A stretch of DNA of 41,096 bases. It comes from a virus. Its lineage: Duplodnaviria > Caudoviricetes. Under the pieces are notes generated by a model. The model searched no databases, was not told the DNA's origin, and saw nothing but the letters and a program-made list of their open reading frames with translations. Below, piece after piece: positions 1,440 through 40,225 of this stretch. Made by a program: the position numbers and the translations under genes. The stretch covers positions 1 to 41,096 of the IMG/VR virus record IMGVR_UViG_3300037419_001758. One strand, written 5' to 3'. Positions within the stretch are counted from its first letter, which is position 1. Every line of letters begins with the position of its first letter.

Positions 1440-2017
1440 GCAGCGAGACCCCCTGCTACGCGTGGCACTACCTCGGTAATGATGGGAGGATTGCCACCTA
1501 CCACAGCTGCTGGAACGGTCTCCAGCCCCACAGCGGAGAGAAGGTGGAAGCGGGCAAGGTCTACCGGGTGGACGGCAAGATCATCCCCTGCCAGAACGGG
1601 CTGCACGCCTCAAAGCGGGCGCTGGACGGCCTGGAATACGCCAGTGGATGCATTATCTCCCGCGTGATCCTCTCCGGGACCGTTGTTGAGGAGAGGGACA
1701 AGGCGGCGGCATCCGAGCGAACGGTGCTGTGGGTAGCGGACGCCACGAAGACGCTCCACGAGTTCGCCGTGTGGTGCGCGGAGCAGGCGCTGCTGCAGGA
1801 GCGTGAGGCCGGACGGGAGCCTGACCCGCGCTGCTGGGCGGCGCTGGAAACGAAGCGGCGGTGGCTAACCGGTCAGGCAACCGATGAAGACCTGCACGCC
1901 GCCAGGGCCGCCGCCAGGGAGGCCGCCTGGGCCGCCGCCAGGGAGGCCATGAATGCCGAACTAGAGCGGCGGCTATTGCTTCTGGCTCCGGTTGACGCAC
2001 CGGCGGAGGTGGCCTGA
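1436..2017 (+). CDS. Conserved phage protein with CxxGLHAS motif and Ala-rich tetrapeptide repeats
   Basis: GTGA coupling; CQNGLHASKRALDGLEYA and AARAAAREAAWAAARE. Confidence 0.75.
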   Translation: MSSETPCYAWHYLGNDGRIATYHSCWNGLQPHSGEKVEAGKVYRVDGKIIPCQNGLHASKRALDGLEYASGCIISRVILSGTVVEERDKAAASERTVLWVADATKTLHEFAVWCAEQALLQEREAGREPDPRCWAALETKRRWLTGQATDEDLHAARAAAREAAWAAAREAMNAELERRLLLLAPVDAPAEVA

Positions 2018-2253
2018 TGGACCCGATGACCAGCTTTGCCTTGGGCGTCTTTGTCGGCGCCATCGCCACCTCACTGTTCGCCTGGATTGCGGCGGAAGGT
2101 GGGCGCCACGAAAACGCGGACCTCAACGCGACGTGGGGCGTGGCGCCGCCCGTGCAGCCATGCCAGGAGAGCGGGCAAATCGACGACACCAGCACGGTGG
2201 TCAACCTCGCCAAATTGCGCGAATTCGAAGTGCAGGAGGTCGCCCGTGCGTAA
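2017..2253 (+). CDS. Small protein with N-terminal transmembrane helix
   Basis: GGAGG RBS, TGATG coupling, hydrophobic FALGVFVGAIATSLFAWIA. Confidence 0.65.
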   Translation: MDPMTSFALGVFVGAIATSLFAWIAAEGGRHENADLNATWGVAPPVQPCQESGQIDDTSTVVNLAKLREFEVQEVARA

Positions 2254-2342
2254 CGACTTGCCCGCCACGGCTAATGACAAGGGCTGATGGTGGGCAGGAC
2301 CGCGGAGCAGCGAGACATAGCGGACCTAGCTGCTCCGCATCT

Positions 2343-2421
2343 GGGATGTGGTGGTCCTGGGAGCTTTTCAACACCTGCCAGTTAAGAGCGCTTCCAGCGG
2401 GCTTCGATGCCCGGCATCCCA
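2343..2421 (+). ncRNA. D-armless tRNA-like structured element
   Basis: Acceptor-like GGGATGT/GCATCCC+A; T-arm-like CGGGC-TTCGAT-GCCCG; long central stem CTGGGAGC/GCTTCCAG; intergenic. Confidence 0.45.
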
Positions 2422-2456
2422 TTGCAGTAATCTACCGACCGACGAGGGAGAGATGC

Positions 2457-2768
2457 ATGAACCGATTTTGTGAGACGCTGCGGCAAGTCCGAAATGGGGC
2501 ACTGGAGACGGAGATGAACGATGCCCTGCAGGAGTTGGTGCACGAGGTGGAGCGGACGGGGAAGAAGGGCAGCCTCACTCTCACCATCGAGGTGCAGCCC
2601 GCTGGTGAGGGGAAGCAGTTCGTCAATGGAGCAACGAAGGCCAAGCTCCCCAGCCCGACCAATCAAGCGACCCTTTTCTACGTGAAGGAGAACGGCGACC
2701 TCACGCGGCGCGACCCGCGACAGCCGGAGCTTCCTTCCTTGAGCATTGCATCCGGAGGTGCAGAGTGA
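2457..2768 (+). CDS. Conserved phage protein, usual upstream partner of DUF2303 (YfdP-like)
   Basis: GAGGGAG RBS; motifs TGKKGSLTLTIEV and G.LTRRDPRQPEL; adjacent to DUF2303. Confidence 0.75.
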   Translation: MNRFCETLRQVRNGALETEMNDALQELVHEVERTGKKGSLTLTIEVQPAGEGKQFVNGATKAKLPSPTNQATLFYVKENGDLTRRDPRQPELPSLSIASGGAE

Positions 2769-3574
2769 GCATGGAAGACACCCAGACCGAAGCCGCGGTA
2801 GTAGCGGCCCTGGCGGCGCGGCAGGTACAAAGTGTCGAGTCCGACATCGCGCCGCTTGTGCCGCTTGCGGCATTGCCGGCCGAGATGCGGATTGAGTCGC
2901 TAGAGAAATACATGCTCACTCCGCTCCGGACGCGGGCAAAGGCGACGTTCCCCGAGCCGGACAGCTTCACCCGTTACGTTAACGACTATAAGCAGGACTC
3001 GACGCGCATCTTCGCGGATGAAGCCGCTGCCCGGTTTTCCTGCATCATCGATTACCACGGCGCCAAGCCCCAGTTCTGCGAGCACACCGCCGCGCTCCAA
3101 CTGAAGCCCACGAAGGCATGGCTGGATTGGATGCAGATCCACAACCGCCAGTCCACCCAGGACAGCCTCGCGGAATTCCTGGAGGACCACCTGACAGAGA
3201 TCGCGCAGCCGGACGGTGGCACGGTAATGGATGCCGTGCGCTTCCTCACAGCGAAGAAGTCGGTCGACTTCAAGCGGGCGACCAACCTCACCAACGGAAC
3301 CATCGCTCTCGAGTACGAGGAGCAAATTGAAGCTCGCGGCAAGGGCAACGCGGAAATCCCCGCCGAGTTCACGCTGCTCATCCAGCCCTACGAGTACGGG
3401 GACAAGTTTCCGCTCAAGGCGCGGCTCCGCTACCGGCTGAAGGATGACAGGTTGACGTTCATCGTCAGCCTGGAGAAGCCGGAAGAGATCCTAAAGGTTG
3501 CATTTACCCAGGCGTCCCGCGCGGTCGGAGAGGCGGCCGGAATCACGCCGCTCCTGGGGAGTGTAGCCGTCTAG
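2765..3574 (+). CDS. DUF2303 (YfdQ-like) family protein
   Basis: Motifs SFTRYVN, IIDYH, QDSLAEFLED, IPAEFTLLIQPY, ARLRYRL. Confidence 0.85.
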   Translation: MSMEDTQTEAAVVAALAARQVQSVESDIAPLVPLAALPAEMRIESLEKYMLTPLRTRAKATFPEPDSFTRYVNDYKQDSTRIFADEAAARFSCIIDYHGAKPQFCEHTAALQLKPTKAWLDWMQIHNRQSTQDSLAEFLEDHLTEIAQPDGGTVMDAVRFLTAKKSVDFKRATNLTNGTIALEYEEQIEARGKGNAEIPAEFTLLIQPYEYGDKFPLKARLRYRLKDDRLTFIVSLEKPEEILKVAFTQASRAVGEAAGITPLLGSVAV

Positions 3575-3787
3575 GACCGAGTTCCCTGCTGCTTCGTCGT
3601 CTTGCGCGTGCAGCTTTCGGCGGGGTGGCCGGGACATCCCCTTCGCCCCCACGTGGGGCGTCCGGATCAGGTTTCCTTACGGTCGCTGCCGGAATAGGCC
3701 GGCGCGGCCACGGGTCTGGCGGTTTCTGGTTGTTTGGTTGCTCGTTCTCAAGCCACCTGATCCGGCTTTTCGTGGAGATTCACGCTG

Positions 3788-8062: not shown

Positions 8063-10876
8063 ATGACCGCACTGGCGGAATGCATTATCGCCGCTCCAGC
8101 ATCCGTGGGCGAGCGCATCTTCAGCGCGGACGGGCTCCTGGCCCAGCGTCTACCCCGCTACGAGGCGCGGCAGCCGCAGATGGACATGGCAGACCTGGTG
8201 GAGCAGCTCCTCCGGGACGGCGGCCAGGCGCTGGTGGAAGCGGGCACCGGGACGGGGAAATCATTCGCCTACCTGATGCCGGCGATTGAGAGCGGAAAGC
8301 GCGTGGTGGTCTCCACGGAGAGCATCCAGCTCCAGGAGCAGCTCATCCGGAAGGACCTGCCATTCCTGGAAGAGGCGCTGGGCCGGCCGGTCAAGTACGC
8401 CATCGCCAAGGGGCGCGGCAACTATTTCTGCGAGCGGAATACACTGGTCCAGATCCAGGAGAACCGCGCGAAGCTTGTCAAGACGGACTACGATACGGAA
8501 CTCCGCCTGGTGGCAGAGGGGCTGATCGGCGACTTCGCGGGTGATTGGGACGGCAACAAGGCCACGCTGGAGCGAGCGGTCCCCGACACGCTCTGGAGTG
8601 ACTTCGCCGGTGACGACTCCTGCTCCGGGGGGAAGTGTCCGCACGCGCTGGACTGCGCCTATATGCAGGCCAAGGCGAAGTTCGAAGACGCGGACATTAT
8701 CATCACCAACCACCACTACTACTTGCTGCACCACTACGTGCGGGAGCAGTCGGGCGGTGTGGTGTGTCTCCTGCCGGAGCACCAGATCTGGGTGGCGGAC
8801 GAGGCGCACACCCTGGCGGACATCGCCCAGAACGTCTACGGCCTGGAGATCCGGCAAGGCGCGCCCAAGCGGTTTGTGACCAAGCTTCTCCGGCAGCTCA
8901 AGGCGCTGAAGCTGGATCTGGACATCAAGTGGGACGTGCCGGCCATCGAAGAGCGCGCCGAGGAGTTCTTCGGCTGCTTCCGCGGCGCCCTGAAAGACGA
9001 GCAGCTCTGGGATGAATTCCCGGAAGCCATTCTGGCGGAAGCGCGCGAGGCCATGTCTCGCCTGGTGGACGCCATCGAGCCGATCCGCATCGGGCTGCAC
9101 CGACTGAAAGCGAGCCTGGCGGATGATGACCCGGACACCAGCCGCGCGCTGCGAATGCTGGCGATGAACGCCAATGGGCTGACGGATGGGCTGCGCCAGT
9201 TCTTTCAGCCGGCGACCATCTGGTGTCCCACGTGCCACGGTACGGCCCAGGATGAGGAGAGCGGCCACCTGTGCGCAGCGTGCGAGGGAACAGGCAGCAT
9301 CCCGGACCCGGACCCGCCGGTGCAGTATGTCGAGGTAACGTCGCGCAGCCGCAGCTATACCAGCGAGAAGCACGTCACCCTCCACCGCAAGCCGGCGGAG
9401 ACGCACCGGATCTTCCGCGGCCTCTACCAGCATCTCCGCACGGCGATCTTCACCAGCGCCACGCTGGCGGCCGGCGGCAGCTTCGGCCCGATTGCGGACG
9501 AGTTGGGCATCAACGCTTTCGACGTGGAGACGCTGCAGGCCCGCAGTCCCTTCCAGTACGCGGAGCAGGTGCGCGGCTACTTCCCCCGGACGGTGCCGGA
9601 CGGCAAGAGCCCGGACTACCATGACCGCCTGGCGGGAGAGGTGCTCCGGATCGTGGAGTGGACGGGCGGCCGGGCGTTCATCCTCTTCACCAGCAATCGG
9701 GACATGCGCGCCGTCCAGGAGCGGATCGAGTTCACCTGCCCCTACCCAGTGCTGATGCAGGGAGAGATGCCGAAGGACCTGCTCATCGAGCGGTTCAAGG
9801 CGGAGCCGTCCGTGCTGCTCGGCGTGCGCACCTTCTGGACCGGCGTCGACATTCCCGGCCAGGCGCTCTCCTGCGTGGTGCTGGTGAAGTTCCCGTTCCC
9901 ACAGCCGGAAGCGCCGCTGGTCAAGGCGCGGTGCCAGCGGATCGAGGCCCGGCGCCAGCGCAGCTTCGACGTCTACAGCCTGCCGCGGGCCATCCGGGAC
10001 ATTCAGCAGGGGTTCGGGCGCCTGATCCGCACGAGCACCGATCGCGGCCTCTTCGTGATCCTGGACAGCCGGCTGCACACCGCGAAGTACGCGCAGAAGG
10101 TGCTGCGGAGCCTGCCGTCCTTCCCCTACAGCGACCAGCTACCCAACGATTGGAGCCTGGACGATGGAACTGGAATTCACCCGTCCCAGCGGCAAGCGGC
10201 GGCCGAAGAGCCGCGAAGCACCGCCCGGCATACCAACGCAGCTCTCCCAGGCGCGACTGGACCGGTGCGCCAATCCGAGTCACACGTTCGCCCATCAGTT
10301 CCATCACTGGATTTTGAAGCTGACGCACGGACCGCGGACCACCCGGGCGATCCTGCTCCAGCGCCTGCGGAAGATCCGGCCGGAGATCGTGCGGCTGCGG
10401 CGAGAGACGCGGAACCCACCGGAGAGTTGGGACGGCCCGACCTGGGAAGCGGCACACGAGCGGCTGTTGACGCTCCTGGCGCAGCGAGCGGCGATCCGGG
10501 AGACGCTCCAGCGCGGACGGGTGTTGGACCTGCCCGATGGCGCTACCTAGATCTCTACGTGGATGGCTACTACTGCAACCGCGGCCCCGGAACGGGCGTG
10601 ATCGGCCTGAACGAGCTGCCGTTTGCCGACCGCAACGAAGCCCGCGCGCGGTGGGAAACGCTCTTCACGCAATACCAGCGGTTCAGCGCCCGCACGGCGT
10701 GGCTCTACGAAAACGAGGGCGATCCGGGGTGGGATGACAAGAGCGCGGCCACGGAGCGCAGCGCGGCGAAGTTCGGGCAACTCCTGGACGAGCTGGCGAC
10801 GTGGTGCAGCGTGACGGACGCAGACGTGGTTCAGCTGCTACAAGCGGCTCTGGAAGGGCCGGAGGAAGAGGCGTGA
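8063..10876 (+). CDS. dinG: DinG/YoaA-family SF2 helicase with Zn-ribbon insertion and C-terminal extension
   Basis: YEARQPQ; EAGTGTGKSFAYL; KGRGNYFC; Fe-S cysteines (CSGGKCPHALDC); DEAH; TSATL; FWTGVDIPG; QGFGRLIR. Segment 10166-10540 is probably in the wrong frame (see findings). Confidence 0.9.
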   Translation: MTALAECIIAAPASVGERIFSADGLLAQRLPRYEARQPQMDMADLVEQLLRDGGQALVEAGTGTGKSFAYLMPAIESGKRVVVSTESIQLQEQLIRKDLPFLEEALGRPVKYAIAKGRGNYFCERNTLVQIQENRAKLVKTDYDTELRLVAEGLIGDFAGDWDGNKATLERAVPDTLWSDFAGDDSCSGGKCPHALDCAYMQAKAKFEDADIIITNHHYYLLHHYVREQSGGVVCLLPEHQIWVADEAHTLADIAQNVYGLEIRQGAPKRFVTKLLRQLKALKLDLDIKWDVPAIEERAEEFFGCFRGALKDEQLWDEFPEAILAEAREAMSRLVDAIEPIRIGLHRLKASLADDDPDTSRALRMLAMNANGLTDGLRQFFQPATIWCPTCHGTAQDEESGHLCAACEGTGSIPDPDPPVQYVEVTSRSRSYTSEKHVTLHRKPAETHRIFRGLYQHLRTAIFTSATLAAGGSFGPIADELGINAFDVETLQARSPFQYAEQVRGYFPRTVPDGKSPDYHDRLAGEVLRIVEWTGGRAFILFTSNRDMRAVQERIEFTCPYPVLMQGEMPKDLLIERFKAEPSVLLGVRTFWTGVDIPGQALSCVVLVKFPFPQPEAPLVKARCQRIEARRQRSFDVYSLPRAIRDIQQGFGRLIRTSTDRGLFVILDSRLHTAKYAQKVLRSLPSFPYSDQLPNDWSLDDGTGIHPSQRQAAAEEPRSTARHTNAALPGATGPVRQSESHVRPSVPSLDFEADARTADHPGDPAPAPAEDPAGDRAAAARDAEPTGELGRPDLGSGTRAAVDAPGAASGDPGDAPARTGVGPARWRYLDLYVDGYYCNRGPGTGVIGLNELPFADRNEARARWETLFTQYQRFSARTAWLYENEGDPGWDDKSAATERSAAKFGQLLDELATWCSVTDADVVQLLQAALEGPEEEA

Positions 10877-11346
10877 TCTACATCGGCATTGACTGCGGAC
10901 TGGACGGCGCATTGGCCGTGATCGACGGGGAGCAGTTCCATGTGTGGGATACGCCCACTGGCAAGCTCACCAAGCGGGAGTACATCGCCCACGAGATGTC
11001 GGCACTGCTGCAGGCCTACCGGGTCGATGCGTTCCGACAGTCCTGCGCCTACATCGAAGCGGTGAGCGGTCGGCCAGGCCAGGGGACTGCTTCCGCACGC
11101 TCTATCGGCTTCGGACAGGGCGTCTGGATCGGCATCCTGGCGGCGCACGGCATTCCCTTCCAGATTGTGCAGCCCACGGCGTGGAAGCGCGAGTTCGGGC
11201 TGCTGAAAGCGGACAAGAACGGCAGCCGGCTGCGGGCGCAACAGCTCTTCCCCCAGGCGGCGGATCGGCTCCAGCGCGTGAAAGACGACGGTCGGGCCGA
11301 AGCCCTGCTCATCGCAGAATTTGCGCGGCGGAGGGCGGCCAAGTGA
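10873..11346 (+). CDS. RuvC-like Holliday junction resolvase
   Basis: IGIDCGLDGALA, YIEAV, PTAWK, DDGRAEALLIA; GTGA-coupled start. Confidence 0.85.
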   Translation: MIYIGIDCGLDGALAVIDGEQFHVWDTPTGKLTKREYIAHEMSALLQAYRVDAFRQSCAYIEAVSGRPGQGTASARSIGFGQGVWIGILAAHGIPFQIVQPTAWKREFGLLKADKNGSRLRAQQLFPQAADRLQRVKDDGRAEALLIAEFARRRAAK

Positions 11347-11386
11347 GCTTGCTGGATCCGATGACGGAAGAAGAGGGGGTGCTGGC

Positions 11387-11599
11387 GTGAAGCGCATTCA
11401 CAAAGACATTCTGGAAGCGCTGCGCCGTGGGGCATTTCTGTCCGCTCCTCGCGGCATCGAGAGCAGCTTTTCCCTGCGCGGTCCCAACTGCGTGTTCATC
11501 CGAGACGTGCGCTCTAGCACCGTGCGCGAAATGCGTCAGCTTGGGCTGCTGGATAGCCAGTTACAGCCTGCACCGGACGCCACGGGAAACGAGAAATGA
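11387..11599 (+). CDS. Hypothetical protein (VKRIHKDILEALRRG...)
   Basis: GAGGGGG RBS, GTG start, ATGA overlap with the next gene. Confidence 0.55.
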   Translation: MKRIHKDILEALRRGAFLSAPRGIESSFSLRGPNCVFIRDVRSSTVREMRQLGLLDSQLQPAPDATGNEK

Positions 11600-11985
11600 G
11601 CCAACCACTACCCACCCCTGGCCGCGAGCCCGTGATGGAGCAAGTGATCGTGGACCTGCGCGAGCGCACCCAGCGCGGGATTGAGACTTACGGTCGTCCG
11701 CTGGAAACGCACAACGGGCGAAGCGCCAAGCTGGACCGCTACCAGGAGTTACTGGACGCGGCCCAATACGCCAAGCAGGACCTGCTGGAAGAGGCCGACC
11801 TACTCCGCGCGCTGCAGCCGGTGGCGCGGCTGCTGTTTTCGGTGGTTCAGACGCGTGATCTGGAAACTGGCGAGCCTGTCCCTGGTGACCGAATTCTGTT
11901 CCGGAGCAATCACACGGATCTGACCATTGGACAGGCCCGGGCGTTCGTGTCAGCCGTTATCGAGCTGGAAGGAAAGGTGCTCTGA
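11596..11985 (+). CDS. Conserved phage protein, possibly all-alpha NTP-pyrophosphatase-like
   Basis: R...GIETYGRPL..HNGR...YQELLDAAQY pattern common in phage proteins; function inferred. Confidence 0.6.
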   Translation: MSQPLPTPGREPVMEQVIVDLRERTQRGIETYGRPLETHNGRSAKLDRYQELLDAAQYAKQDLLEEADLLRALQPVARLLFSVVQTRDLETGEPVPGDRILFRSNHTDLTIGQARAFVSAVIELEGKVL

Positions 11986-12231
11986 TGCCCCGGCCCAACG
12001 CGGGAACGAGCTTTCGCCAGCCGACCGGCCACCGCAATACGATCCGGCGCGGGGACGGAGATTCGGAAGTGCCCCGGTTGCCCGCGCCGGATCGTGACGC
12101 ACTTCGTGGTGTGTGCCGACTGTCGCCCGCGCCTGACACTGGAGACGCGCCAGAGGTTCCGGCGCAAGGGCAAGACCGGAGAGCGGGCCGTGATCCACGC
12201 CCTGCGCGAGTTGAGAGAGGAGAAGCCCTGA
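11985..12231 (+). pseudogene. Zn-finger protein (CPGC...CADC) split by a +1 frameshift at about 12057
   Basis: The ATG frame is coding-like to RRGD. The +1 frame then gives EIRKCPGCPRRIVTHFVVCADCRP...EEKP* ending in TGATG coupling. Confidence 0.55.
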
Positions 12232-12377
12232 TGCTTCAGATCATCGTGTTTCGGGATCGCTGGCTGGTGATCCGTGCGACGGACCTGGTAGGACCGCACA
12301 CCCTCGCCTGCGAGGTGCTGGGCACCTTCGACACGCTCAACGACGCGGAAGCGTTCATCGACCGAGGTGGGCAATGA
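12231..12377 (+). CDS. Small hypothetical protein (MLQIIVFRDRW..., 48 aa)
   Basis: GAGGAG RBS; coupled at both ends. Confidence 0.6.
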   Translation: MLQIIVFRDRWLVIRATDLVGPHTLACEVLGTFDTLNDAEAFIDRGGQ

Positions 12378-12904
12378 GCAACCGTATTGGGGATTGGATG
12401 CAGGTGGGGAGTGGCCCGTTTTGGCCGCTGGACCCGCGCCCGGAAGAGATCCATATCCACGACATCGCAGTGGCACTCTCTAACCTTTGTCGCTTCGGCG
12501 GCCACGTCCGGGAGTTCTACTCCGTGGCGCAGCATTCGGTGCACGTCGCCGCCCTTTGCGGTCCGGAAGATGCACTCTGGGGACTGCTGCACGACGCCAG
12601 CGAAGCCTACCTGGGCGACATCATACGCCCGCTAAAGCGCCAGGAGTGCTTTGCGGAATACCGGGCTGCCGAAGAACGGCTGATGGCCGCTATCTGCGCG
12701 CGGTTCGACTTGCCGCGGGAGATGCCAGAGAGCGTGCGGCGTGCGGACGAGATCATGCTGGCCACGGAAGCGCGGGATCTCAAGAACGTGGACCTGGAGA
12801 CGTGGACCGTGCGGGAAAGACCACGGGATACACGCATCAATCCCTGGAGCCCGGCGCGAGCATGGTTCGAGTTCGGGAAGTCATTTGAGGCGTTGACCCG
12901 ATGA
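12374..12904 (+). CDS. HD-domain phosphohydrolase (YfdR/YfbR-like 5'-deoxynucleotidase)
   Basis: DIAVALSNLCRFGGH...FYSVAQHSV...LLHDASEAYLGDI...ADEIMLATEARDL. Confidence 0.9.
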   Translation: MSNRIGDWMQVGSGPFWPLDPRPEEIHIHDIAVALSNLCRFGGHVREFYSVAQHSVHVAALCGPEDALWGLLHDASEAYLGDIIRPLKRQECFAEYRAAEERLMAAICARFDLPREMPESVRRADEIMLATEARDLKNVDLETWTVRERPRDTRINPWSPARAWFEFGKSFEALTR

Positions 12905-13226
12905 CGCCGGAGAGCAGGCAGATACTCATCCAGACGCACGCTGGCGCAAAGGTCGTTCAGGGCGAGGTGTTGGGGCTACTGGCGATCCATCCGGCGATCC
13001 ACCGTCACGGCTATACGGTGACACATCTACCCACAGGACGAGAGATGGGCCTGGCGCGGTGGGTGGTCACGCTGCCGTAGGCCAGGACGCTGTTGACAGC
13101 GCTTCAGCAGCTCGATTGGGATTGGGTGGACGACCGCAACACGATCCGGTGCGGGAAGCGGCGCGGCAGATCATTCGGGCGGTGTTGGAGCCGCCCATCC
13201 GGAGGCAGGTGGCGCGAGAGGAGTAA
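12901..13226 (+). pseudogene. Hypothetical gene interrupted by in-frame TAG (13078-13080) and a frameshift at about 13135
   Basis: MTPESRQ...YTVTHLPTG...VTLP*ARTLLTALQQLDWDWVDD, then in another frame DPVREAARQIIRAVLE...EE*; ATGA-coupled start. Confidence 0.55.
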
Positions 13227-13229
13227 GAG

Positions 13230-13475
13230 ATGCGGATCACGATTGAGCTGACGGAGAGTGAAGTGCGGACCATCGTGCGAGAAGCGCTGGGCACCCAGGG
13301 TTACCACGTTACCCGTGACGAGTGGATACACGACCGCAATGACCCGAACGGCAGCTATCGGGTGAGCGGCTACAAGACGGTGGTGGACAACCTGGCGGTG
13401 CCCAAAGCCCTGGGGCCTGGGGATGTGGTGGATGCAACCCTAGTTGATGAGCACGGCGGAGAGGTGGCGGAGTAA
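13230..13475 (+). CDS. Hypothetical protein
   Basis: GAGGAG RBS; MRITIELTESEVRTIVREAL; GC3-rich. Confidence 0.7.
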   Translation: MRITIELTESEVRTIVREALGTQGYHVTRDEWIHDRNDPNGSYRVSGYKTVVDNLAVPKALGPGDVVDATLVDEHGGEVAE

Positions 13476-13543
13476 CCCGCTGCCCGCGAACTTGGACCGG
13501 CGTCCAATGATAACGAATGATAACTTTTCGGCGCGGAGGGGCG

Positions 13544-13927
13544 ATGCGTATCGAGGTACGGCTGGTAGTCCGGATCTGCGAGTTGGCGGGGATCAAAGGC
13601 CGTCAGCGAGAGTGCTTCGAGCGCCTCTGCCAGGACCGGAGCGTGGAGGACGTGGGAAAGGAGCTGGGTATCTCCCCGCAGACGGTCTACAGCCACCTGC
13701 GGCGGGCCAAGTGGAAGGTGCGACGCATCCAGGCGGGACACGGCGAGCTGCGGCAGTGGTGGGAGCTGATCCTGGAGGAGTGCATCCCGAACGGCCAGAA
13801 CCCGGCACCGGCGACACCGCGATTTGAGCGGAACGATTACGGCGTGATGGAGCGGGTGAAGGTACAGGGGGCGCGTCCGCTGACCGTGGATGACCTGGTG
13901 GCGCCGTTCGAGGTAGAGGTGCGGTAG
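13544..13927 (+). CDS. Sigma70-region-4/LuxR-like HTH protein, probable late transcription activator or antiterminator
   Basis: RQRECF...SVEDVGKELGISPQTVYSHLRRA; GGAGGG RBS; last early gene before the late promoter. Confidence 0.75.
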   Translation: MRIEVRLVVRICELAGIKGRQRECFERLCQDRSVEDVGKELGISPQTVYSHLRRAKWKVRRIQAGHGELRQWWELILEECIPNGQNPAPATPRFERNDYGVMERVKVQGARPLTVDDLVAPFEVEVR

Positions 13928-13959
13928 GTAGCTCGCTTGTCCGGTTAAAAAACTTTCCC

Positions 13960-13988
13960 TTGCACGCTGTAATAAAAGCTGTAATAAT
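13960..13988 (+). promoter_or_regulatory. Late-operon promoter
   Basis: TTGCAC N17 AATAAT with extended TG; direct repeat GCTGTAATAA x2 (13966-13975, 13978-13987). Confidence 0.6.
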
Positions 13989-13995
13989 CCGGGTG

Positions 13996-14031
13996 AGGGC
14001 ACTGCGTCTAAAAGATGACAGTGCCCTTTTT
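13996..14031 (+). terminator. Intrinsic terminator directly after the late promoter
   Basis: AGGGCACTG...CAGTGCCCT followed by TTTT. Confidence 0.65.
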
Positions 14032-14199
14032 CGTGCGTGACCGTATTCGGGCGCACGTTTCGTTTTCGGGGACCACTCCGGAACGGCCGGCGGGACCGCT
14101 TCCCGCAAGTCGGCACAGTCCAGAGTGACTGCGCGCGGCGCTACCTAGCGGCTCACTCCGGTGGGTACTGCGTTCCGATCCCTTGAGTCCTAAAGTGCT

Positions 14200-14244
14200 T
14201 CAGCCCTCGGCGCCCGCGTGGTGACCGGGGGCTGATCTTTTTCT
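14200..14244 (+). terminator. Second intrinsic terminator in the late leader
   Basis: TCAGCCCTCGG...CCGGGGGCTGA followed by TCTTTTTCT. Confidence 0.6.
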
Positions 14245-14281
14245 GTTGTCCCGGCTGGAGGCCGGTGAGGAACCGGCCTGC

Positions 14282-14515
14282 ATGAAACTCGACACCGCGG
14301 CGCTGTTTACGCTGGTCGGCATCCTCGTGGTCCTGATCGGCAACCTGGTCACGCTCCTGATGGGCATTGCCCGGATGGAGGAGGGCCTCAAATTCATGGG
14401 CAAGCGCGCGGACGGGATCGACAAGCGCCTGAACGGCCACGACCACCGGATTGGAAAGCTCGAGATCGGGCACGGTGAGATGCGAGAGCGCCTCGGGATG
14501 AAAGGTCAAGGATGA
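14282..14515 (+). CDS. Holin-like/XhlA-like membrane protein
   Basis: One TM helix plus coiled coil (IDKRLNGHDHRIGKLE); GAGGA RBS; first late gene. Confidence 0.6.
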   Translation: MKLDTAALFTLVGILVVLIGNLVTLLMGIARMEEGLKFMGKRADGIDKRLNGHDHRIGKLEIGHGEMRERLGMKGQG

Positions 14516-14706
14516 ACACTCCGTTTTACTGCCAGCGCTCCTTCTGGGTGAGCGCGGCGGGCAACATCTCCGCGCTGGCGGCCCTCTGCGCGGCCAACGC
14601 CAAGCTCCACGGTCTCTACTTGGCTCTCGCCGCCGTAGCGACCATTTGCGGTAACCTGGGCAGCGTCATTGCGGAGCGGTCCGCGAAGGGAACGACCAAT
14701 GGCTGA
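14512..14706 (+). CDS. Putative holin (two hydrophobic segments)
   Basis: FYCQRSFW N-terminus resembles holin (W/F)Y.S..FW starts; 64 aa; ATGA coupled. Confidence 0.55.
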   Translation: MNTPFYCQRSFWVSAAGNISALAALCAANAKLHGLYLALAAVATICGNLGSVIAERSAKGTTNG

Positions 14707-15181
14707 TCTGCCTTCCCTCTTCTCCGGCATCCTATCGGGCGCGCTGGGAGCGCTGGACGCGAGTGAGAAGGCGCACCTCCTGGCCCACGTGCAGGCGGTC
14801 GAGAAGCTGGGCGGCCAGGTCGACCTCTCCGGAGTGCTAGACGCGCTCAATGGCGGCTGGCTGCCGGATTACTTCGCTGCAGCGGAGCTGAATGTGAGTG
14901 CGCAGCTCGCGATGAGCACCACGCGCCAGCAGGTAGTCCAGGCGCAGGGCGGGGTCAGCATCGGGCCGCTGCAGCTCACCGGTAGCCTGGCGGAGACGAC
15001 GGCGCGGGGTGAGAACACCAACGTGACGGTCACGTGCACCCTGGAGCGCCAGAGTCGCAGCAAGGCGGTGAGCAACGCCTTCGATGCCCTGCTCACCACG
15101 CCGGGACCATCCATCCTGCCGCAGACGCCCACTACGCCGGCACTGCCCACGGCGTCCGTCGTCTCCACTCCGCCGCACTAA
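14699..15181 (+). CDS. Hypothetical protein with DUF2589-like helix + Ser/Thr-rich beta-hairpin layout
   Basis: N-terminal amphipathic helix; alternating strands ELNVSAQLAMS / GGVSIGPLQLTGSLAET / NTNVTVTCTLER; closing helix; Pro/Thr tail. Confidence 0.55.
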   Translation: MADLPSLFSGILSGALGALDASEKAHLLAHVQAVEKLGGQVDLSGVLDALNGGWLPDYFAAAELNVSAQLAMSTTRQQVVQAQGGVSIGPLQLTGSLAETTARGENTNVTVTCTLERQSRSKAVSNAFDALLTTPGPSILPQTPTTPALPTASVVSTPPH

Positions 15182-15435
15182 TGGACACCTCGCGCATCAC
15201 GGACAAGGCACCCCTCCCTGACTACCTCAAGGCAGTCGCGGATGGGGTGCTGGAAGCTGTGCAGCAGATCGAGACGGCGTATCCGGGGTGGGTGGTGAAG
15301 ACCCTGGACGTGACGGTCCGGTGCGCGCTGCGTCCGGAGCTCTCCGCGGATGGCAAGAGCGTGGCCCGCATCTGGGCGGATATGGACGTGAGCCGCAGCC
15401 AGCAGGTGACGGAGATCACGCTGCCGTTGAGGTGA
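15181..15435 (+). CDS. Hypothetical protein with Trypco/DUF2589-like helix + beta-hairpin layout
   Basis: PLPDYLKAVADGVLEA...WVVKTLDVTVRCAL...VTEITLPLR; TAATG coupling. Confidence 0.55.
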   Translation: MDTSRITDKAPLPDYLKAVADGVLEAVQQIETAYPGWVVKTLDVTVRCALRPELSADGKSVARIWADMDVSRSQQVTEITLPLR

Positions 15436-15439
15436 CCCC

Positions 15440-15733
15440 TTGAAGCTCTTCTCTCGTTTCTCCCACTTCTCTCTTTTGCGCGCGCTGCTCCAGGCACGCC
15501 GCGAGATCAAGGACCTGACCATGACCCGTGACGAGCTACTCCAGAAGATTGAAGGCGTGAAGAGCGAGGCGACGGCCCTCCGTGCGGAGCGGGACAGCCT
15601 CGCCGCGCAGGTGACGCAGCTCCAGGCTGCGCAGGACCTCTCCGACGTGGGTGCGGCGGTGGATGGCATTGGTGCGGCACTCCAGCCGCAGCCGATCCAG
15701 GCTGCCGAACCGGCGGCGAACGGCGCGCAGTAG
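15440..15733 (+). CDS. Coiled-coil protein (start TTG 15440 or ATG 15521)
   Basis: Heptads IEGVKSEATALRAERDSLAAQVTQLQA. Confidence 0.65.
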   Translation: MKLFSRFSHFSLLRALLQARREIKDLTMTRDELLQKIEGVKSEATALRAERDSLAAQVTQLQAAQDLSDVGAAVDGIGAALQPQPIQAAEPAANGAQ

Positions 15734-15737
15734 TCCG

Positions 15738-15995
15738 ATGTGCGCCCACACGCTCCTCTCCAGCGCCTGCGCGATCCTGGGCCGGCTGCACGTGCTGTTT
15801 CCGGCTGCTGACTACGGGTTGATGCTGGAGCTGCGGGAGGAGGGCGTCGTGGTGCGCATCCAGCGCCGGGAGACGGGGAACCGCTACGCCGTGGCCTGGG
15901 AAGGGTTCCGGAGCCCGGAGAGCGTGGTGCGGTGCTTTGAGGAGTGGCACTGCACGGGCGAGCCGGATTGGGCCAACGTAGACGACGCGGACTGA
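15738..15995 (+). CDS. Hypothetical protein
   Basis: GC3-rich ORF ending at the bidirectional terminator. Confidence 0.6.
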   Translation: MCAHTLLSSACAILGRLHVLFPAADYGLMLELREEGVVVRIQRRETGNRYAVAWEGFRSPESVVRCFEEWHCTGEPDWANVDDAD

Positions 15996-16024
15996 AAAAG
16001 CCCCTCACTCGGAGGGGACTTTTT
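15996..16024. terminator. Bidirectional intrinsic terminator
   Basis: AAAAG-CCCCTC-ACTCG-GAGGGG-ACTTTTT between convergent genes. Confidence 0.7.
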
Positions 16025-16298
16025 CGTTCTTCTCCGGCCGGCCCCGGCGCTGCGGTTGGAACGCTTCCAGGTCGCTGACGGAGAACCAGAGGACAGGGCC
16101 ACGGGGCGTCTCCTCACGCAGGTGCGGCAGGCGGCCGGCGCGGGCCAAGCGGCGCACTTCCTGCACGGAGCGAGAGAGGAAATCCGCGGCCTGCGCGGTG
16201 CTCAGCTTATCCGCCGAGCCATAAGCGTTGCCCGCATCATCCACCCAAACCGGGATGCCGTAGGACGAGGCGGGATGATCGGTGGTCTGGCGGAACAT
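16005..16298 (-). CDS. Excisionase/HTH_17-like DNA-binding protein
   Basis: LSTAQAADFLSRSVQEVRRLARAGRLP...WFSVSDLEAF and an AT-hook-like RRGRP. Confidence 0.8.
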   Translation of the reverse strand: MFRQTTDHPASSYGIPVWVDDAGNAYGSADKLSTAQAADFLSRSVQEVRRLARAGRLPHLREETPRGPVLWFSVSDLEAFQPQRRGRPEKNEKVPSE

Positions 16299-16648
16299 CA
16301 GGCAACTCCCAGGATGTAGGCGGCGAGGATTTCGTTGTTCACTGCCGGGAAGCCCTCGGAATTCTTGCGGAGCAGGCCGTCCTCTGTCAGCGCGTCTCCG
16401 TCGATCACCAGCACCACGCCCTCGCCGCCGTTGAACTCATCGCGGACATATTCCGCCTCTTCGCGGTTGGCAGTCAGAGAGATCATCGCGCCGTCCTCGA
16501 AGAGGTAGTTCTCGTTCGCCTCGGTCCAGCGGTTGGCGATCCCCTGGGCCTCTTCGTCGGAGAGCAACCCGCGCTCCACCTGCGCCAGCAGGGACAGCAG
16601 ATCCTCTCCCTGGCGGTAGTTGCGATTGGTTGCGTGGTAGAGCGTCAT
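16298..16648 (-). CDS. Small protein with ADP-ribosyltransferase-like fold motifs
   Basis: TLYHAT, ISLTANREEA, VVLVID, EI.AAYI. Pattern typical of ART/Tpt1-like folds; GGAGA RBS. Confidence 0.55.
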   Translation of the reverse strand: MTLYHATNRNYRQGEDLLSLLAQVERGLLSDEEAQGIANRWTEANENYLFEDGAMISLTANREEAEYVRDEFNGGEGVVLVIDGDALTEDGLLRKNSEGFPAVNNEILAAYILGVA

Positions 16649-16679
16649 CGTCTTCTCCGTGCTTGCTGCTTACGTATTT

Positions 16680-16708
16680 ATTGTAGCGCACGGGAATTAT
16701 TATGTCAA
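16680..16708 (-). promoter_or_regulatory. Near-consensus sigma70 promoter of the moron
   Basis: TTGACA N17 TACAAT on the minus strand, overlapped by the imperfect repeat AGCGCRCGGGAAYTATT (16685-16701, 16708-16724). Confidence 0.8.
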
Positions 16709-16736
16709 GCGCGCGGGAACTATTTTCCGAAAATAA

Positions 16737-17327
16737 ATGCTGACCCTCACCAACGCGCTGATCGACAGCGCCCTCGCCCGGCTGGGCCTGCACCGACGCC
16801 AGAACGGCGAGACGGCGCTCCTGGGCATCCGCGGCAGCATCCCGCTGGATGGGCACACGATTAAGAACGGGCAGGATGCGCAGAACACCTATAACGACAG
16901 CGTCGTGGTTTACGGCCCTACTCTGCGCGTGTTCCAGGCCAGCGTGGACCCCGGAGCTACCTACACGGAGCATCCCGACAACCCACAGGGCTGTGCGCAT
17001 CTGCTGGATGGCTCCTACATGTACCAGTGGGGCGACCATAAGGGGCATCTGGCGCTGGTAGAGGCGAGCGAGGTGCGCATCTGGCGGGACCGCAACCGGA
17101 GCGGCGAGCGCACCGCTGATGACCCGGTAGAGACGGGGATCTTCGGCATCCACATCCACAGCGGCGGCCCTGGCCCCTACGTCGGCCCGTGGAGCGCTGG
17201 CTGTCAAGTTATTCGCAGTAACCCAGCGTGGGGCGGCGCGTGGCTCCAGTTCGTGCAGCTCCTCCAGCAGAGCGGACAGCACAGCTTTGCCTACACCCTG
17301 ATCGACGCCAAGGATTTGAACGGGTGA
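16737..17327 (+). CDS. Endolysin/peptidoglycan hydrolase, His-Cys (YkuD-like) WSAGCQV type
   Basis: LLGIRG, YND, SVDPG, WRDRNRSG, FGIHIH, WSAGCQV, FAYTLID. Confidence 0.75.
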   Translation: MLTLTNALIDSALARLGLHRRQNGETALLGIRGSIPLDGHTIKNGQDAQNTYNDSVVVYGPTLRVFQASVDPGATYTEHPDNPQGCAHLLDGSYMYQWGDHKGHLALVEASEVRIWRDRNRSGERTADDPVETGIFGIHIHSGGPGPYVGPWSAGCQVIRSNPAWGGAWLQFVQLLQQSGQHSFAYTLIDAKDLNG

Positions 17328-17328
17328 G

Positions 17329-17550
17329 ATGCCCTGGCGCCCCACCGAGTATGCGATGATCCGCTGCTGGGTGGACGGGCGCTCCTGGTGGTATGAGGAC
17401 CACGGCGCTACGCCCCGAGAGGCGCGGGTGCTGGCCTGGGCCGCGTGGTGGGCGCTCTCTCCGGCGCAGCAGCGGTTGGAGCTGGTGATCGTACCCCTCG
17501 CCGCGCCGGACCGCCCGTGCTACAGCGTGAGCCGTGAGCCGATTAGCTGA
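17329..17550 (+). CDS. Hypothetical protein
   Basis: Fills the gap between endolysin and terS; TGATG coupling. Confidence 0.5.
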   Translation: MPWRPTEYAMIRCWVDGRSWWYEDHGATPREARVLAWAAWWALSPAQQRLELVIVPLAAPDRPCYSVSREPIS

Positions 17551-18110
17551 TGGAACCCGAGAAGTCCTTGAACCCGCGTCAGAAGAAGTTCCTGGCGGCC
17601 TACCTGGTGAACGGCGGCAACGCGACGGCCGCGGCGCGGGAAGCGGGTTACGCCAACGCCAGGGTGGAGGGCTACCGGCTGACCCGCGTGCCGGCGATCT
17701 CCGCAGCCATCAAGGAGCACCTGGACGCGGCTGCAATGTCCGCGGAAGAGGTCCTGGCCCGGCTGGCGGACCATGCGCGGGGCGACCTCGCGGACTTCAT
17801 CGACATCGGGCGTTCGGGCCGTTGGAAGCTGGATCTGAAGAAAGCTGAAAAGCTTGGTCTGCTCCACCTGGTCAAGAAGATCAGCTACGACCGGAAAGGC
17901 AACCCGACGCTGGAGCTGCACGATGCGCAGGCGGCGCTCCAGCTCCTGGCCAAGCACCACGGCCTGCTGACGGAGAAGGTGGAGCACAGCGGTACGGTGC
18001 GGATCGAAGATGTCCTTGGCAGTCTTGACCCCGAGTCAGCAGCAGGAGTTCGCCGAGCGCTTACTGACGCTTTACGGCCCGGCGGAGGTGGAGCGCGCGC
18101 TGGGGAATGA
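17550..18110 (+). CDS. terS: Terminase small subunit
   Basis: LNPRQKKFLAAYL..GNATAAAREAGY...ALQLLAKHHGLL.EKVEHSG. Confidence 0.9.
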   Translation: MEPEKSLNPRQKKFLAAYLVNGGNATAAAREAGYANARVEGYRLTRVPAISAAIKEHLDAAAMSAEEVLARLADHARGDLADFIDIGRSGRWKLDLKKAEKLGLLHLVKKISYDRKGNPTLELHDAQAALQLLAKHHGLLTEKVEHSGTVRIEDVLGSLDPESAAGVRRALTDALRPGGGGARAGE

Positions 18111-19500: not shown

Positions 19501-21154
19501 CGCCAAAACGCTCGCCGCGGCGCTCATCAACGTGCAGCGCGCCCCGGCCGGCTGGGAGATCGTCCAGCGGCTGGGGCAGGAGGCGCAGGCATACCATGAG
19601 CTAAATCCGTACCCCTACTTCCACTTCTCCGAGTGGAAGACAGAGGAGCGCGGCCCGTATCCGCGGTGCATGCCGTTCGTGCGGACGGCGGTCCTGCGCG
19701 GCGCCCGGTGGCTGTTCAGCAAGCCGGTGCAGATCAACGCCGGCCCCCAGCCGGAGCGAGGGGTGCCGCGCGATAACCCGCTGGAGGACTACCTGCGCGC
19801 GGCGTGGCAGGCGAACCGGATGCCCACGCGGATGGTCGCGGCGGCGGCCCGGGCCGCGCAGCAGGGCGGGATGGCGCTCAAGTTCGCATACGACAAGGCC
19901 GCGCCGGTGCCGCTCTCGTTCCAGACGCTAGCGGCCGATACCGTGCGGTGCTACTACCATCCGCACAACCGCAACCAACTGCTGATGGTGCGGGTGCAGT
20001 ACCCGTATCAGGACCCGGTGACTGGCAATTGGATGCTGTACCGGGAGGAGTGGACGGCGGAGGAAGAGGTCCACTACCAGCCGATTGCGGCACAGATCGT
20101 GCCGACGTGGATCAGCACGCCGCAGGGGAACGTCGCGGGGCTGCCGTACTTCACGGCGCTGGGGGACAACGCGCTGCCGGACAACTCCGGCGCGTGGGGC
20201 GAGCCGCAGCGAAAGCCGAACCCGTTCGGGATCATTCCGATCACGCCCATCAAGAACCTCGACGCGGATGATTGCGACGGCATTGGTGACCTCTGGGGGC
20301 TGTTCCGGGCCGTGGATCGGGTCAACCTGATCTATGCGCTGATGGACCGCAGCAACCAGTTCGATAGCCAGCCGAACCTGATTTTCCTGGACGTGGACGT
20401 GGATCAGCAGGAGGCGGACAAGCCGCTGGCGGCCGGTCAGCCGGCCAGCTTCAAGAGCGACGGGGACGCGCAGGGCGAGCGCAAGGGCCAGATCATCATG
20501 GCGGAGGCGAGCGGCAAGCTCCGGTCCGCGATGATGGAGCACGCGAAGGACCTGCGGAGTCAGATCCTGGCGGCCTGTTCGTCCGTGGAAGTCGACCAGG
20601 CCGAGTTCACAAACAAGGGCAACCTCACGCAGGCGGTGCTCGCGCAGCTCTACGGGCCGCTGATCGAGATCACCGACGAGAAGCGGAAGACGTACGGCGA
20701 GGACGGGATCTGCAAGTTCCTGGAGAGCGTGTGCGTCGGGCTGACCAACGCCGGGCTCCGGCTGCCGGAGTTCAAGGGCGTCAAGGTCGACGACCACGAC
20801 ACCTACGACGTGACCCTCAAGTGGGCTCCGTACTTCGCGCTGACGGAAGAGGAGAAGCAGACCGTTGTTAAGCGCCTTACCGATGAGGTGGATGCCGGGG
20901 TAATGACCACAGAGCGCGTGGCGGAACACGTCGCGCAGCTTGAGGGGATCGAAGATGTTGCCGCCTTCCTCAAGGAACTGAAAGATCGCGACAGCGATAC
21001 CGGCGGCGGTGAAGCGGACGACCCGATCAAGCTCTACCAGGGCGGTATCATCACGCGCAACGAGGCGCGAAAGATGAAGGGATTGGGGCCAGCACACCAG
21101 GCGGATAGCGGCCCCGCGCCAGACGATCCCGGAGCGGAGTCGCCCCATGTCTAA
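19487..21154 (+). CDS. Portal protein (SPP1 gp6-like)
   Basis: Position after terL, 555 aa, NPFGIIP, GIGDL, GNLT..AL..LYGPL...KR..YG. Confidence 0.85.
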   Translation: MDIANAKTLAAALINVQRAPAGWEIVQRLGQEAQAYHELNPYPYFHFSEWKTEERGPYPRCMPFVRTAVLRGARWLFSKPVQINAGPQPERGVPRDNPLEDYLRAAWQANRMPTRMVAAAARAAQQGGMALKFAYDKAAPVPLSFQTLAADTVRCYYHPHNRNQLLMVRVQYPYQDPVTGNWMLYREEWTAEEEVHYQPIAAQIVPTWISTPQGNVAGLPYFTALGDNALPDNSGAWGEPQRKPNPFGIIPITPIKNLDADDCDGIGDLWGLFRAVDRVNLIYALMDRSNQFDSQPNLIFLDVDVDQQEADKPLAAGQPASFKSDGDAQGERKGQIIMAEASGKLRSAMMEHAKDLRSQILAACSSVEVDQAEFTNKGNLTQAVLAQLYGPLIEITDEKRKTYGEDGICKFLESVCVGLTNAGLRLPEFKGVKVDDHDTYDVTLKWAPYFALTEEEKQTVVKRLTDEVDAGVMTTERVAEHVAQLEGIEDVAAFLKELKDRDSDTGGGEADDPIKLYQGGIITRNEARKMKGLGPAHQADSGPAPDDPGAESPHV

Positions 21155-21983
21155 CGGCGGCTTCATCAATGGCGGCGGAGGTGGTTTCTTCGTGGAGTCG
21201 GACCACCCGCGCGATGCCAAGGGGGAGTTCGCCAGCAAGGGCGGCTCGGGCGAGGATGGTTCGCCTGGTGGCAGACCCGGATCGGGTAGTGAGCGCGGCA
21301 AATCAACACAGCGGAGCCCCAGGGGCGCAGGTAAAAACGATCAAGGAAATGTTGCCAAAGCGACTGCCAAAGCGACTGCCACCGTCGATGCCAGCCAGAA
21401 GACGCGCGCAGCGGCCAAGGAATACTTTGGCCGCGAGATGTCCGACCGCGATTTTCAGGAGTTGATGGGTGCACCTGACGGTGCGCAGATTATGGTAGAC
21501 GCGCTGGATGGCGGAAACCTTGTATTTCACGTCCAGCACCCTCTCTACCAGCAGATGCATTTGGCATATGCCGTGCAAATGCCAAATGGTATGAAGTTCC
21601 TGCGATTGGAACTCTACCATCTGAAGGACAATGCCCCGGAAGGGATGGGCGCGCAAGCATTCGGGCAGTGGGTGAAGAAGGGCCGCGAACTGGGGCTGAA
21701 GGCGATTTATATCCCCACGGCGGCGCGCAATTCGCAGATGGTGGGATATTACGTTTGGCCGCGTTTTGGGGCTGATGAGGAAATACCGGAAGAGCTGATT
21801 AGCGAGCTTCCCGAGTCGCTGAAATCATGCAAAGACCTCTCCGATTTGATGAAATCAAAAGAGGGAAAAGAGTGGTGGAGAGCGAAAGGTATTACGACCA
21901 GTTGCGCGTTTGAATTAGATCCGGAAAGCGTCTCTTCCCAGATCTGGGCCGATTATTGCGCTGAAAAAGGCATCCCTCAATGA
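21147..21983 (+). CDS. Head-region protein with HPRDxxGxF N-terminus and GNAT-like C-terminal domain
   Basis: ESDHPRDAKGEFASKGG; Gly-rich linker; APEGMGAQAF (acetyl-CoA loop-like) and GYYVWPRFG; lower GC3. Confidence 0.6.
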   Translation: MSNGGFINGGGGGFFVESDHPRDAKGEFASKGGSGEDGSPGGRPGSGSERGKSTQRSPRGAGKNDQGNVAKATAKATATVDASQKTRAAAKEYFGREMSDRDFQELMGAPDGAQIMVDALDGGNLVFHVQHPLYQQMHLAYAVQMPNGMKFLRLELYHLKDNAPEGMGAQAFGQWVKKGRELGLKAIYIPTAARNSQMVGYYVWPRFGADEEIPEELISELPESLKSCKDLSDLMKSKEGKEWWRAKGITTSCAFELDPESVSSQIWADYCAEKGIPQ

Positions 21984-38194: not shown

Positions 38195-38242
38195 TTATCA
38201 ATTGTAATACAGGCGCTTCACCGGTCGTATTTCAAATGGTAA
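38195..38242. other. attP-like site of the serine integrase
   Basis: AT-rich imperfect inverted repeat TTATCAATTGTAATAC / GTATTTCAAATGGTAA (13/16 match) around a 16-bp spacer, at the integrase 3' end. Confidence 0.7.
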
Positions 38243-39725: not shown

Positions 39726-40225
39726 CGGTGGTAGTTCTCCAGGCGCAGGCGCAGCTCTTCCGGCGTGCATCCCGACCGCGCCAGGATGGCGGCTTCATCC
39801 TCAAAGCCCTGCGTCATAATCACCTCCCAGGGCAGCTTCCAGGCCAGCACGAACCGGCGCACCTCGGATTCGTTGCACTGGTCCTCCCGGATCTCGAACT
39901 TCGGCCCGAGCATCCCGCCCAGGCGCATCCCCGAGAGGAAGCAGTGGCCCAGCTCCTCCAGCAAGTCCGCGGTCATCTGCTCCTCACTCTGGCGCGTGGA
40001 GATCACGATCAGCGCCCGCTCTCCTGGTAGCGCCCAGGTGAAGCTCTTGGGCTCCTCCGCCAGCTCCACTTCGATCTTCCCCTCGCACATCGCCGCCCAG
40101 GCCAGCCGCCACACGTCCGGATCCTGGGGGAAATCCGCCATCCGCAGCACCCACCGGGCGTGTGCTGCCCACTCCTCCGCCGTTAATCCCATCCGTCGCA
40201 CCGTAACATCCTCGCCAGTCGCCAT
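39722..40225 (-). CDS. ImmA/IrrE-family metallopeptidase (anti-repressor type)
   Basis: LLEELGHCFL (HExxH variant), downstream E..V..F...W.LP; lies between repressor and integrase. Confidence 0.7.
   Translation of the reverse strand: MATGEDVTVRRMGLTAEEWAAHARWVLRMADFPQDPDVWRLAWAAMCEGKIEVELAEEPKSFTWALPGERALIVISTRQSEEQMTADLLEELGHCFLSGMRLGGMLGPKFEIREDQCNESEVRRFVLAWKLPWEVIMTQGFEDEAAILARSGCTPEELRLRLENYHR

Follow-up and report, generated by a model that had tools for sequence, protein, structure and literature searches.

We analyzed a 41,096-nucleotide virus record (Duplodnaviria; Caudoviricetes; IMG/VR record IMGVR_UViG_3300037419_001758), referred to here as the window, with emphasis on a cassette of six plus-strand genes at 14282-15995, designated g1, g2, A, B, C, and D in their order (Table 1). 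The window also carries replication, terminase, portal, major capsid, connector, and tail-region genes, as judged by Pfam and PHROGs matches. The cassette lies between a sigma-like regulator, which from its position likely controls late genes, and the small terminase gene, which is the usual place of a lysis cassette. An initial annotation had proposed that two holin-like genes are translationally coupled to A and B, which might replace spanins by forming membrane pores. The gene positions and the coupling were as described: g1 and g2 overlap by 4 bp, g2 and A by 8 bp, and the stop codon of A shares one base (15181) with the start codon of B. G+C content at third codon positions is 0.82-0.91 in all six genes, similar to that of a probable lysin gene that the initial annotation overlooked. 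This gene is set apart from the cassette by a terminator-like hairpin and two inverted genes. The inverted genes are likely an insertion that separates the cassette from the lysin, because no such genes lie between the B-like gene and the lysin gene of a related prophage (L021, below).

Table 1. Features of the cassette and its surroundings in the window (aa, amino acids; HTH, helix-turn-helix; ORF, open reading frame; TM, transmembrane segment).
Feature	Position	Strand	Basis or remark
Sigma-70 region-4/LuxR-type HTH protein	13544..13927	+	Pfam Sigma70_r4_2 E 6e-8; PHROG sigma factor E 2e-5
g1, 77 aa, one TM (11-29) and coiled coil	14282..14515	+	Kyte-Doolittle 2.6
g2, 64 aa, hydrophobic	14512..14706	+	8-bp overlap with A
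A, 160 aa, minimal DUF2589-like long-hairpin protein, predicted barrel subunit	14699..15181	+	AlphaFold2, profiles
B, 84 aa, Trypco2/Pepco-like predicted fold	15181..15435	+	AlphaFold2, ESM Atlas, profile
C, 97 aa, coiled-coil protein without TM	15440..15733	+	weak coiled-coil Pfam matches; alternative ATG 15521
D, 85 aa, no assigned family	15738..15995	+	ORF call, Pfam, PHROGs
Bidirectional intrinsic-terminator-like hairpin ending the cassette	16001..16017	both	terminator scan
Two inverted genes (HTH_17 protein and one without assignment)	16005..16648	-	own sigma-70 promoter match 11/12
Probable endolysin, 196 aa	16737..17327	+	phrog_3000, phrog_33083
Terminase small subunit	17550..18110	+	Pfam Terminase_2 E 6e-20; opens packaging module after lysis region

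A search of 1.84 billion representative sequences gave 27 relatives of A at E ≤ 0.001, and 13 of 90 candidates were relatives of B; therefore, both are conserved proteins. In an AlphaFold2 model of A built from 29 sequences (predicted local distance difference test [pLDDT] 73; predicted TM-score 0.44), helices at residues 4-37 and 43-51 are followed by strands at 62-88 and 91-117, a helix at 121-133, and a disordered proline-rich tail that is variable and missing in some homologues. The two 27-residue strands form a hairpin in which column averages over the 29 aligned sequences distinguish three zones. Mean hydropathy alternates at the base (62-72 and 108-117; 2.6 versus -1.7); in the middle, both faces are polar; and alternation returns at the tip (80-88 and 91-97; 2.2 versus -1.0 and 2.8 versus -2.1), where the polar face consists of Ser, Thr, Gly, and Gln. 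Outward tip positions 80, 86, 88, 91, 93, and 97 are hydrophobic in 79-100% of these sequences, compared to 0-17% for the facing positions. Relative to 5000 shuffles, the whole strands are no more amphipathic than chance (3026 and 2871), and the tip strands are more so (41 and 155). At approximately nine residues per strand (about 30 angstrom), the tip would match the thickness of a bilayer.

The ESM Atlas placed A with DUF2589 at a score of 0.91, a value that also occurs in 4-10% of shuffles, and 28 of its 30 matches fell in DUF2589 clusters. In an hhalign comparison, A was colinear with a profile of eight long-hairpin DUF2589 proteins (E 3e-4; probability 39%), sharing the Gly-x-Gly-Pro turn at the tip, the last strand, and the C-terminal helix; this score exceeded those of all 25 shuffles and of the reversed profile. 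A differs from DUF2589 in lacking an inserted beta-subdomain and, together with B, in being coupled directly to a holin-like gene. None of the 29 aligned A-family sequences matched PF11655 (DUF2589) at E ≤ 1, and the best match of PF19631 (Trypco2) to the family (E 0.084, found in 2 of 29 members) was below the Pfam cut-off. By these comparisons, A appears to be a remote, minimal DUF2589-like protein, related weakly and at the superfamily level.

Fold searches with A gave no significant match (Foldseek against the PDB, best E 0.08; BFVD, best E 0.009, to an uncharacterised protein). The best match in the VIA/PDB search (Z 5.8) was to helices and barely covered the hairpin. The weak matches to the hairpin itself were beta-pore toxins (lysenin, Z 5.0, root-mean-square deviation 5.9 over 54 residues), and lower-collar proteins and TraT were also among these non-significant matches. 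Long hairpins likewise build phage collars and secretion rings, and the tip, with its hydrophobic face, might pack against a ring of another protein, for example B, so A and B could instead be a soluble ring or scaffold without membrane activity, acting as a virion or assembly part or as a lysin adaptor. We consider this quite unlikely: a match to known virion proteins, which the initial annotation had named as evidence against its proposal, was found for neither A nor B in PHROGs or BFVD; both genes are located in the lysis region, ahead of the terminase gene, and are found outside phages as well; and a full set of head and tail-region genes is present separately in the window.

The AlphaFold2 model of B (pLDDT 88) contains a helix at residues 12-33 and strands of 13, 7, and 7 residues at 42-54, 61-67, and 77-83, and the monomer has no long hairpin. 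Hence the long alternating strands that were ascribed to both proteins fit A, with alternation limited to the base and tip of its hairpin, and do not fit B. Structural neighbours of B in the ESM Atlas included a Trypco2 cluster and a DUF2589 cluster (TM-score 0.64 each); the match to the Trypco2 cluster spans 76 residues with a score below the Atlas bar for naming. Against a small Trypco2 profile, which rests on six true rows because one of seven was extracted in the wrong frame, B gave an hhalign E of 2.6e-4 (probability 43%) over 54 columns, above all 30 shuffles. PF19631 matched 2 of 14 B-family members below the Pfam cut-off (best E 0.042), and fold searches gave nothing significant (PDB, best Z 3.1; BFVD, best E 0.04, to an uncharacterised protein). 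B thus seems to have a remote, Trypco2-like fold. The possibility that B is a short copy of DUF2589 was rejected, as 8 of 25 shuffles scored equally well. Of the partners encoded in DUF2589 operons, B matched neither the second DUF2589 copy (E 0.2) nor the helical partner (E 0.12). The A and B profiles align only at the first helix (probability 4%), and therefore the two proteins are not recent paralogues. A complex prediction with three copies of each scored 0.21 (mark, 0.32); this score leaves A-A assembly outside and is evidence neither way.

Trypco1 and Trypco2 were named as trypsin-co-occurring domains (PMC7159879). They have since been described as Pepco (PF19631), a pore toxin activated by a protease, which forms sodium dodecyl sulfate-stable beta-barrels of 9-11 subunits and is lethal after removal of a proline-rich tail, cut at a conserved Ile; the barrels have a hydrophobic exterior and amphipathic basal helices (bioRxiv 10.1101/2025.11.14.688446). 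Like Pepco, A and B are small cytoplasmic proteins with an amphipathic helix and beta strands, and A shares the layout of helix, hairpin, and proline-rich tail. Unlike Pepco, they are two genes rather than one, lie in a phage lysis operon, and have no adjacent protease or sensor; moreover, the hairpin of A is longer with a polar stem, and B has no tail beyond its last strand. In a motif scan, a trypsin-like motif was absent from the window, L005, L021, and 20 kb around L006 (loci described below), compared to its presence at three of six control loci of true Trypco2, and no protease Pfam was found among 50 ORFs of the window. Judged by family cut-offs and protease linkage, neither A nor B belongs to DUF2589 or Pepco. 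The resemblance to DUF2589 and Trypco noted by eye in the initial annotation is present, but remote.

Since Pepco is a defence effector, A and B could also be a death or defence module carried in a late operon and acting in abortive infection, superinfection exclusion, or lysis timing by depolarization of the inner membrane in response to a trigger. The variable proline-rich tail of A resembles the tail removed from Pepco, and L006 contains, 1.7-5 kb from A and B on the opposite strand, a gene for a peptidase-like protein and, after it, one for an Avs1a-like metallo-beta-lactamase (10405-13811, minus strand; NCBIfam E 1e-7). These two genes have the look of a protease-metallo-beta-lactamase defence module, with repeated palindromic elements between them and the A-B pair. 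We judge this explanation improbable in light of the missing trypsin-like motif, the absence of the proline-rich tail from some A homologues, and the coupling to holin-like genes, which implies late expression and fits poorly with defence.

DNA was available for three loci that carry A and B, namely the window, L005, and L006, the latter two from one small bacterial class. Of 401 genomes sampled across the phylum, 2 carried A-family loci; within this class, the figure was 2 of 8. B directly follows A in all three loci, and the pair lies behind holin-like genes in the window and in L005, where g1-like, g2-like, A, and B genes are neighbours of a host helicase gene, with the contig end 150 bases further on. 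A search with the lysin led to L021, a prophage contig in the same genome as L005 whose lysin is 63% identical to that of the window. There, g1-like and g2-like genes precede a long-hairpin gene broken by a short run of N, followed in turn by a 99-aa B-like gene, the lysin gene, a pair of small genes, terminase genes, and a portal-like gene; as in the window, g2 and the gene after it share 8 bases. Neither the long-hairpin gene nor the 99-aa gene was detected with the A and B models. Should both be distant members of the A/B superfamily, then this superfamily would have come to occupy the position between holin and lysin on two occasions. Thus the survey of lysis linkage found the arrangement repeated in L005 and L021, and one of the three A-B loci, L006, without adjacent lysis genes.

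Because A, B, and the lysin are shared, the class of L005 and L006 probably hosts the phage in the window; the style of its genes suggests Armatimonadota, and Omp85 was present in all five genomes tested from this likely host class. Scans of viral contigs for relatives of A, B, and the holin-like genes yielded nothing beyond one 22-residue match, and the scan with the lysin recovered the same phage and two distant phages. Two matches of 25-31 residues in metagenomes and one of 24 residues in an Arthrobacter genome were not used. GenBank phages and plasmids contained no relative of A, and GenBank phages none of B. The longest contigs of A and B relatives share the sizes 12674, 6278, 1663, and 45155, a hint that more A-B pairs exist.

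From their hydrophobicity and position, g2 can be called holin-like and g1 holin-like or a holin accessory, and their sizes, transmembrane segments, and position fit holins. A g1-shaped gene also occupies the first position in L005 and L021, and the L005 relative matched XhlA weakly (E 0.35). The genes at the g2 position of L005 and L021 share 60% identity with one another and 22-28% with g2 of the window. These two relatives (L005, 1858-2064; L021, 4686-4901) contain a lipobox-like Cys in the middle of the first hydrophobic segment, which is probably a transmembrane helix rather than a signal peptide. The 196-aa lysin matched phrog_3000 (function unknown; E 4e-37) and phrog_33083 (endolysin; E 5e-13) and had no Pfam or PDB match, signal sequence, or transmembrane segment. 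We take its His/Cys motif to be reminiscent of L,D-transpeptidase folds, which no Pfam or PDB match backs. Distant relatives occur in 10 of the 401 phylum genomes, mostly among host genes, and only the L005 and L006 genomes carry A. The family also includes chromosomal genes for proteins of 300-360 aa with an extra C-terminal part (L022, 9041-10000; L023, 9994-10983; L032; L035-L037). In L038 (389-2328), three small membrane-protein genes precede a distant lysin relative, with no A, B, or phage gene in the 3.6 kb seen; this is perhaps a domesticated lysis cassette.

The absence of an Rz/Rz1 spanin lipobox noted initially was borne out: no consensus lipobox was found among 138 starts in 13900-17600 or among 116 starts in the lysis region of L021. 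In the whole window, the single consensus lipobox among 1609 starts belongs to a 326-aa lipoprotein at 37209, which has no second transmembrane segment as a unimolecular spanin would. For a two-component spanin, neither a lipoprotein with a consensus lipobox in the lysis region nor a transmembrane segment in C was found. The gene for the 326-aa lipoprotein (37209-38189) has no family match, is flanked by the tail region and by a recombinase-like ORF close to the end of the window (38232-39770, minus strand; serine-integrase-like by eye), and may be a moron. A relaxed scan for unusual lipoboxes, motivated by PMC6139136, returned four sites in the window, of which the only lipoprotein-like one is a 70-aa ORF in the +1 frame within the lysin gene (16849-17061), with a basic start, a short hydrophobic stretch, a non-consensus lipobox-like Cys, and a proline-rich remainder. 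As its hydrophobic stretch is broken in L021, this candidate embedded outer-membrane spanin was taken as chance. C and D were rejected as an overlapped spanin pair because C lacks a transmembrane segment and D lacks a signal peptide.

The coiled-coil protein that was said to follow A and B is C, and it has weak coiled-coil matches. C and D were not seen in related cassettes, and C is missing between the B-like gene and the lysin of L021; the two genes lie outside the conserved unit. With its TTG start, the first 24 residues of C (15440-15511) are Phe/Leu-rich with a net charge of +5, loosely like a cationic membrane peptide, but their helical moment is low (0.44); the ATG at 15521 would skip them, and both starts are preceded by a ribosome-binding-like site.

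We propose that A and B act as an accessory to lysis, with A likely assembling into a barrel that perforates a membrane, a reading whose chances we put at about even. A and B would be expressed late together with g1 and g2, as the observed overlaps suggest. Each A protein would contribute its predicted hairpin to a ring of roughly ten subunits, a number taken from Pepco, with the base packed on the helices, the polar middle as an exposed stem, and the nine-residue tip, whose pattern is observed, inserted as a membrane belt. B, of the same broad fold as A, would likely be a partner ring or a regulator that caps, nucleates, or restrains the barrel; A is the likelier pore subunit because B has no long amphipathic hairpin. 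A, B, and the lysin have no signal sequence or transmembrane segment and would therefore reach the periplasm only through holin lesions. Because the holin and lysin cover the inner membrane and wall and no spanin was seen, the outer membrane is left as the open target. We regard the outer membrane as a possible, if doubtful, target of A, and a holin-assisting pore in the inner membrane as unlikely.

The proposed lysis accessory resembles spanins (Rz/Rz1 and unimolecular; PMC6139136) in following a holin, lying near an endolysin, and having a likely diderm host, and differs in that A, B, and C have no transmembrane anchor, no lipoprotein is present, and a beta-barrel is predicted instead of a membrane-fusing coiled coil. 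The disruptin gp28 of phage phiKT, likewise a candidate for disrupting the outer membrane in a phage without spanins, is a cationic amphipathic helix of 56 aa (bioRxiv 10.1101/515445), whereas A and B are larger and beta-rich. Only tentatively, then, do we suggest a Pepco/DUF2589-type beta-barrel inserted from the periplasmic side as a phage way through the outer membrane beside spanins and disruptin.

Type 10 secretion cassettes also link a holin and a wall hydrolase to proteins that lack signal peptides (PMC10847048), differing in that A and B belong to a phage with head and tail genes and have no known toxin cargo. Lysis cassettes release toxins (PMC10847048), and A and B, which have no signal peptide, could be such cargo, a pore toxin made late and freed by holin-lysin lysis against neighbours or grazers. 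A hairpin with stem and tip is the layout of secreted beta-pore toxins, to which the weak fold matches of A pointed, and the stand-alone copy in L006 and the L005 cassette beside a host helicase gene would fit domestication. Those fold matches are not significant, no receptor-binding domain or immunity gene was seen, and the L021 genes sit at the heart of a lysis cassette, with the holin-like gene on one side and the lysin on the other; a toxin is an explanation to be weighed but not one we expect to hold.

DUF2589 operons resemble the A-B cassette in having several genes and often adjoining muralytic enzymes. We viewed nine canonical loci (one genome, seven plasmid or chromid records, and one gut contig), leaving out one further plasmid match. 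Among 24 selected ORFs, a muralytic gene on the same strand lay within about 3 kb downstream in four of the nine loci, encoding two N-acetylmuramidases, one phage lysozyme, and one SLT-domain protein; the phage lysozyme gene overlaps the second DUF2589 gene of its locus. Four proteobacterial loci (L042, L045, L046, L047) have a conserved gene of 87-118 aa directly 3' of the DUF2589 pair, with no Pfam match for the one copy tested, and in L047, from Vibrio aquimaris, two PatG-domain genes lie directly upstream of the pair (1670-3650).

Several observations weigh against a lysis barrel formed by A. The kinships are distant: hhalign probabilities were only 39% for A with DUF2589 and 43% for B with Trypco2, all members of both families fall short of Pfam cut-offs, A aligned to the Trypco2 profile at no better than E 0.036 (equalled by 1 of 30 shuffles), and comparison of the DUF2589 and Trypco2 profiles detected no kinship. 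Neither g1 nor g2 matched a holin family in Pfam, PHROGs, or NCBIfam, so the label holin-like stands on hydrophobicity and position. In L021, the matches are likewise weak, at E 0.002 for the hairpin half with DUF2589, E 0.28 for the hairpin half with the A family, and E 0.013 for the 99-aa gene with the B family. L006 carries A and B alone on the chromosome among host genes, with no PHROG lysis or terminase match in 15 ORFs from the surrounding 20 kb, and the other lysin loci of the phylum have no A or B. Five of the nine DUF2589 loci have no confirmed muralytic neighbour, and the count of four in nine stands without a background rate. The record is 86% complete. In the outer membrane, a barrel of 20 strands would open a porin-sized hole, which the membrane might withstand, and A and B are acidic (net charge -5 and -2), unlike the cationic disruptin.

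Elsewhere in the window, a gene at 21147-21983 between the portal and a scaffold-like gene encodes a 278-aa protein with a glycine-rich start, then a globular domain, and only a weak PHROG match. In the literature searched, we found no barrel-pore lysis mechanism; the Pepco preprint alone joined Pepco to phage and barrel, and its supplements may hold phage-borne or DUF2589-like members. DUF2589 was rarely named in that literature (one mention was a table entry), and the accession PF11655 was absent. A link to R-bodies found no support in passages of PMC13689365.

How spanin-less phages, 91 of 677 in one survey (PMC6139136), pass the outer membrane is an open question, and the tiny A-B pair (160 and 84 aa), coupled to a holin-like gene, is directly testable by complementation of a lambda spanin mutant. 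The proposed barrel offers a possible mechanism for DUF2589, a family of unknown function. Were such a barrel indeed inserted in the outer membrane, a single superfamily would supply bacteria with an anti-phage suicide pore and phages with a pore for lysis; the DUF2589 operons, which are widespread, would then represent domesticated modules for lysis or release.
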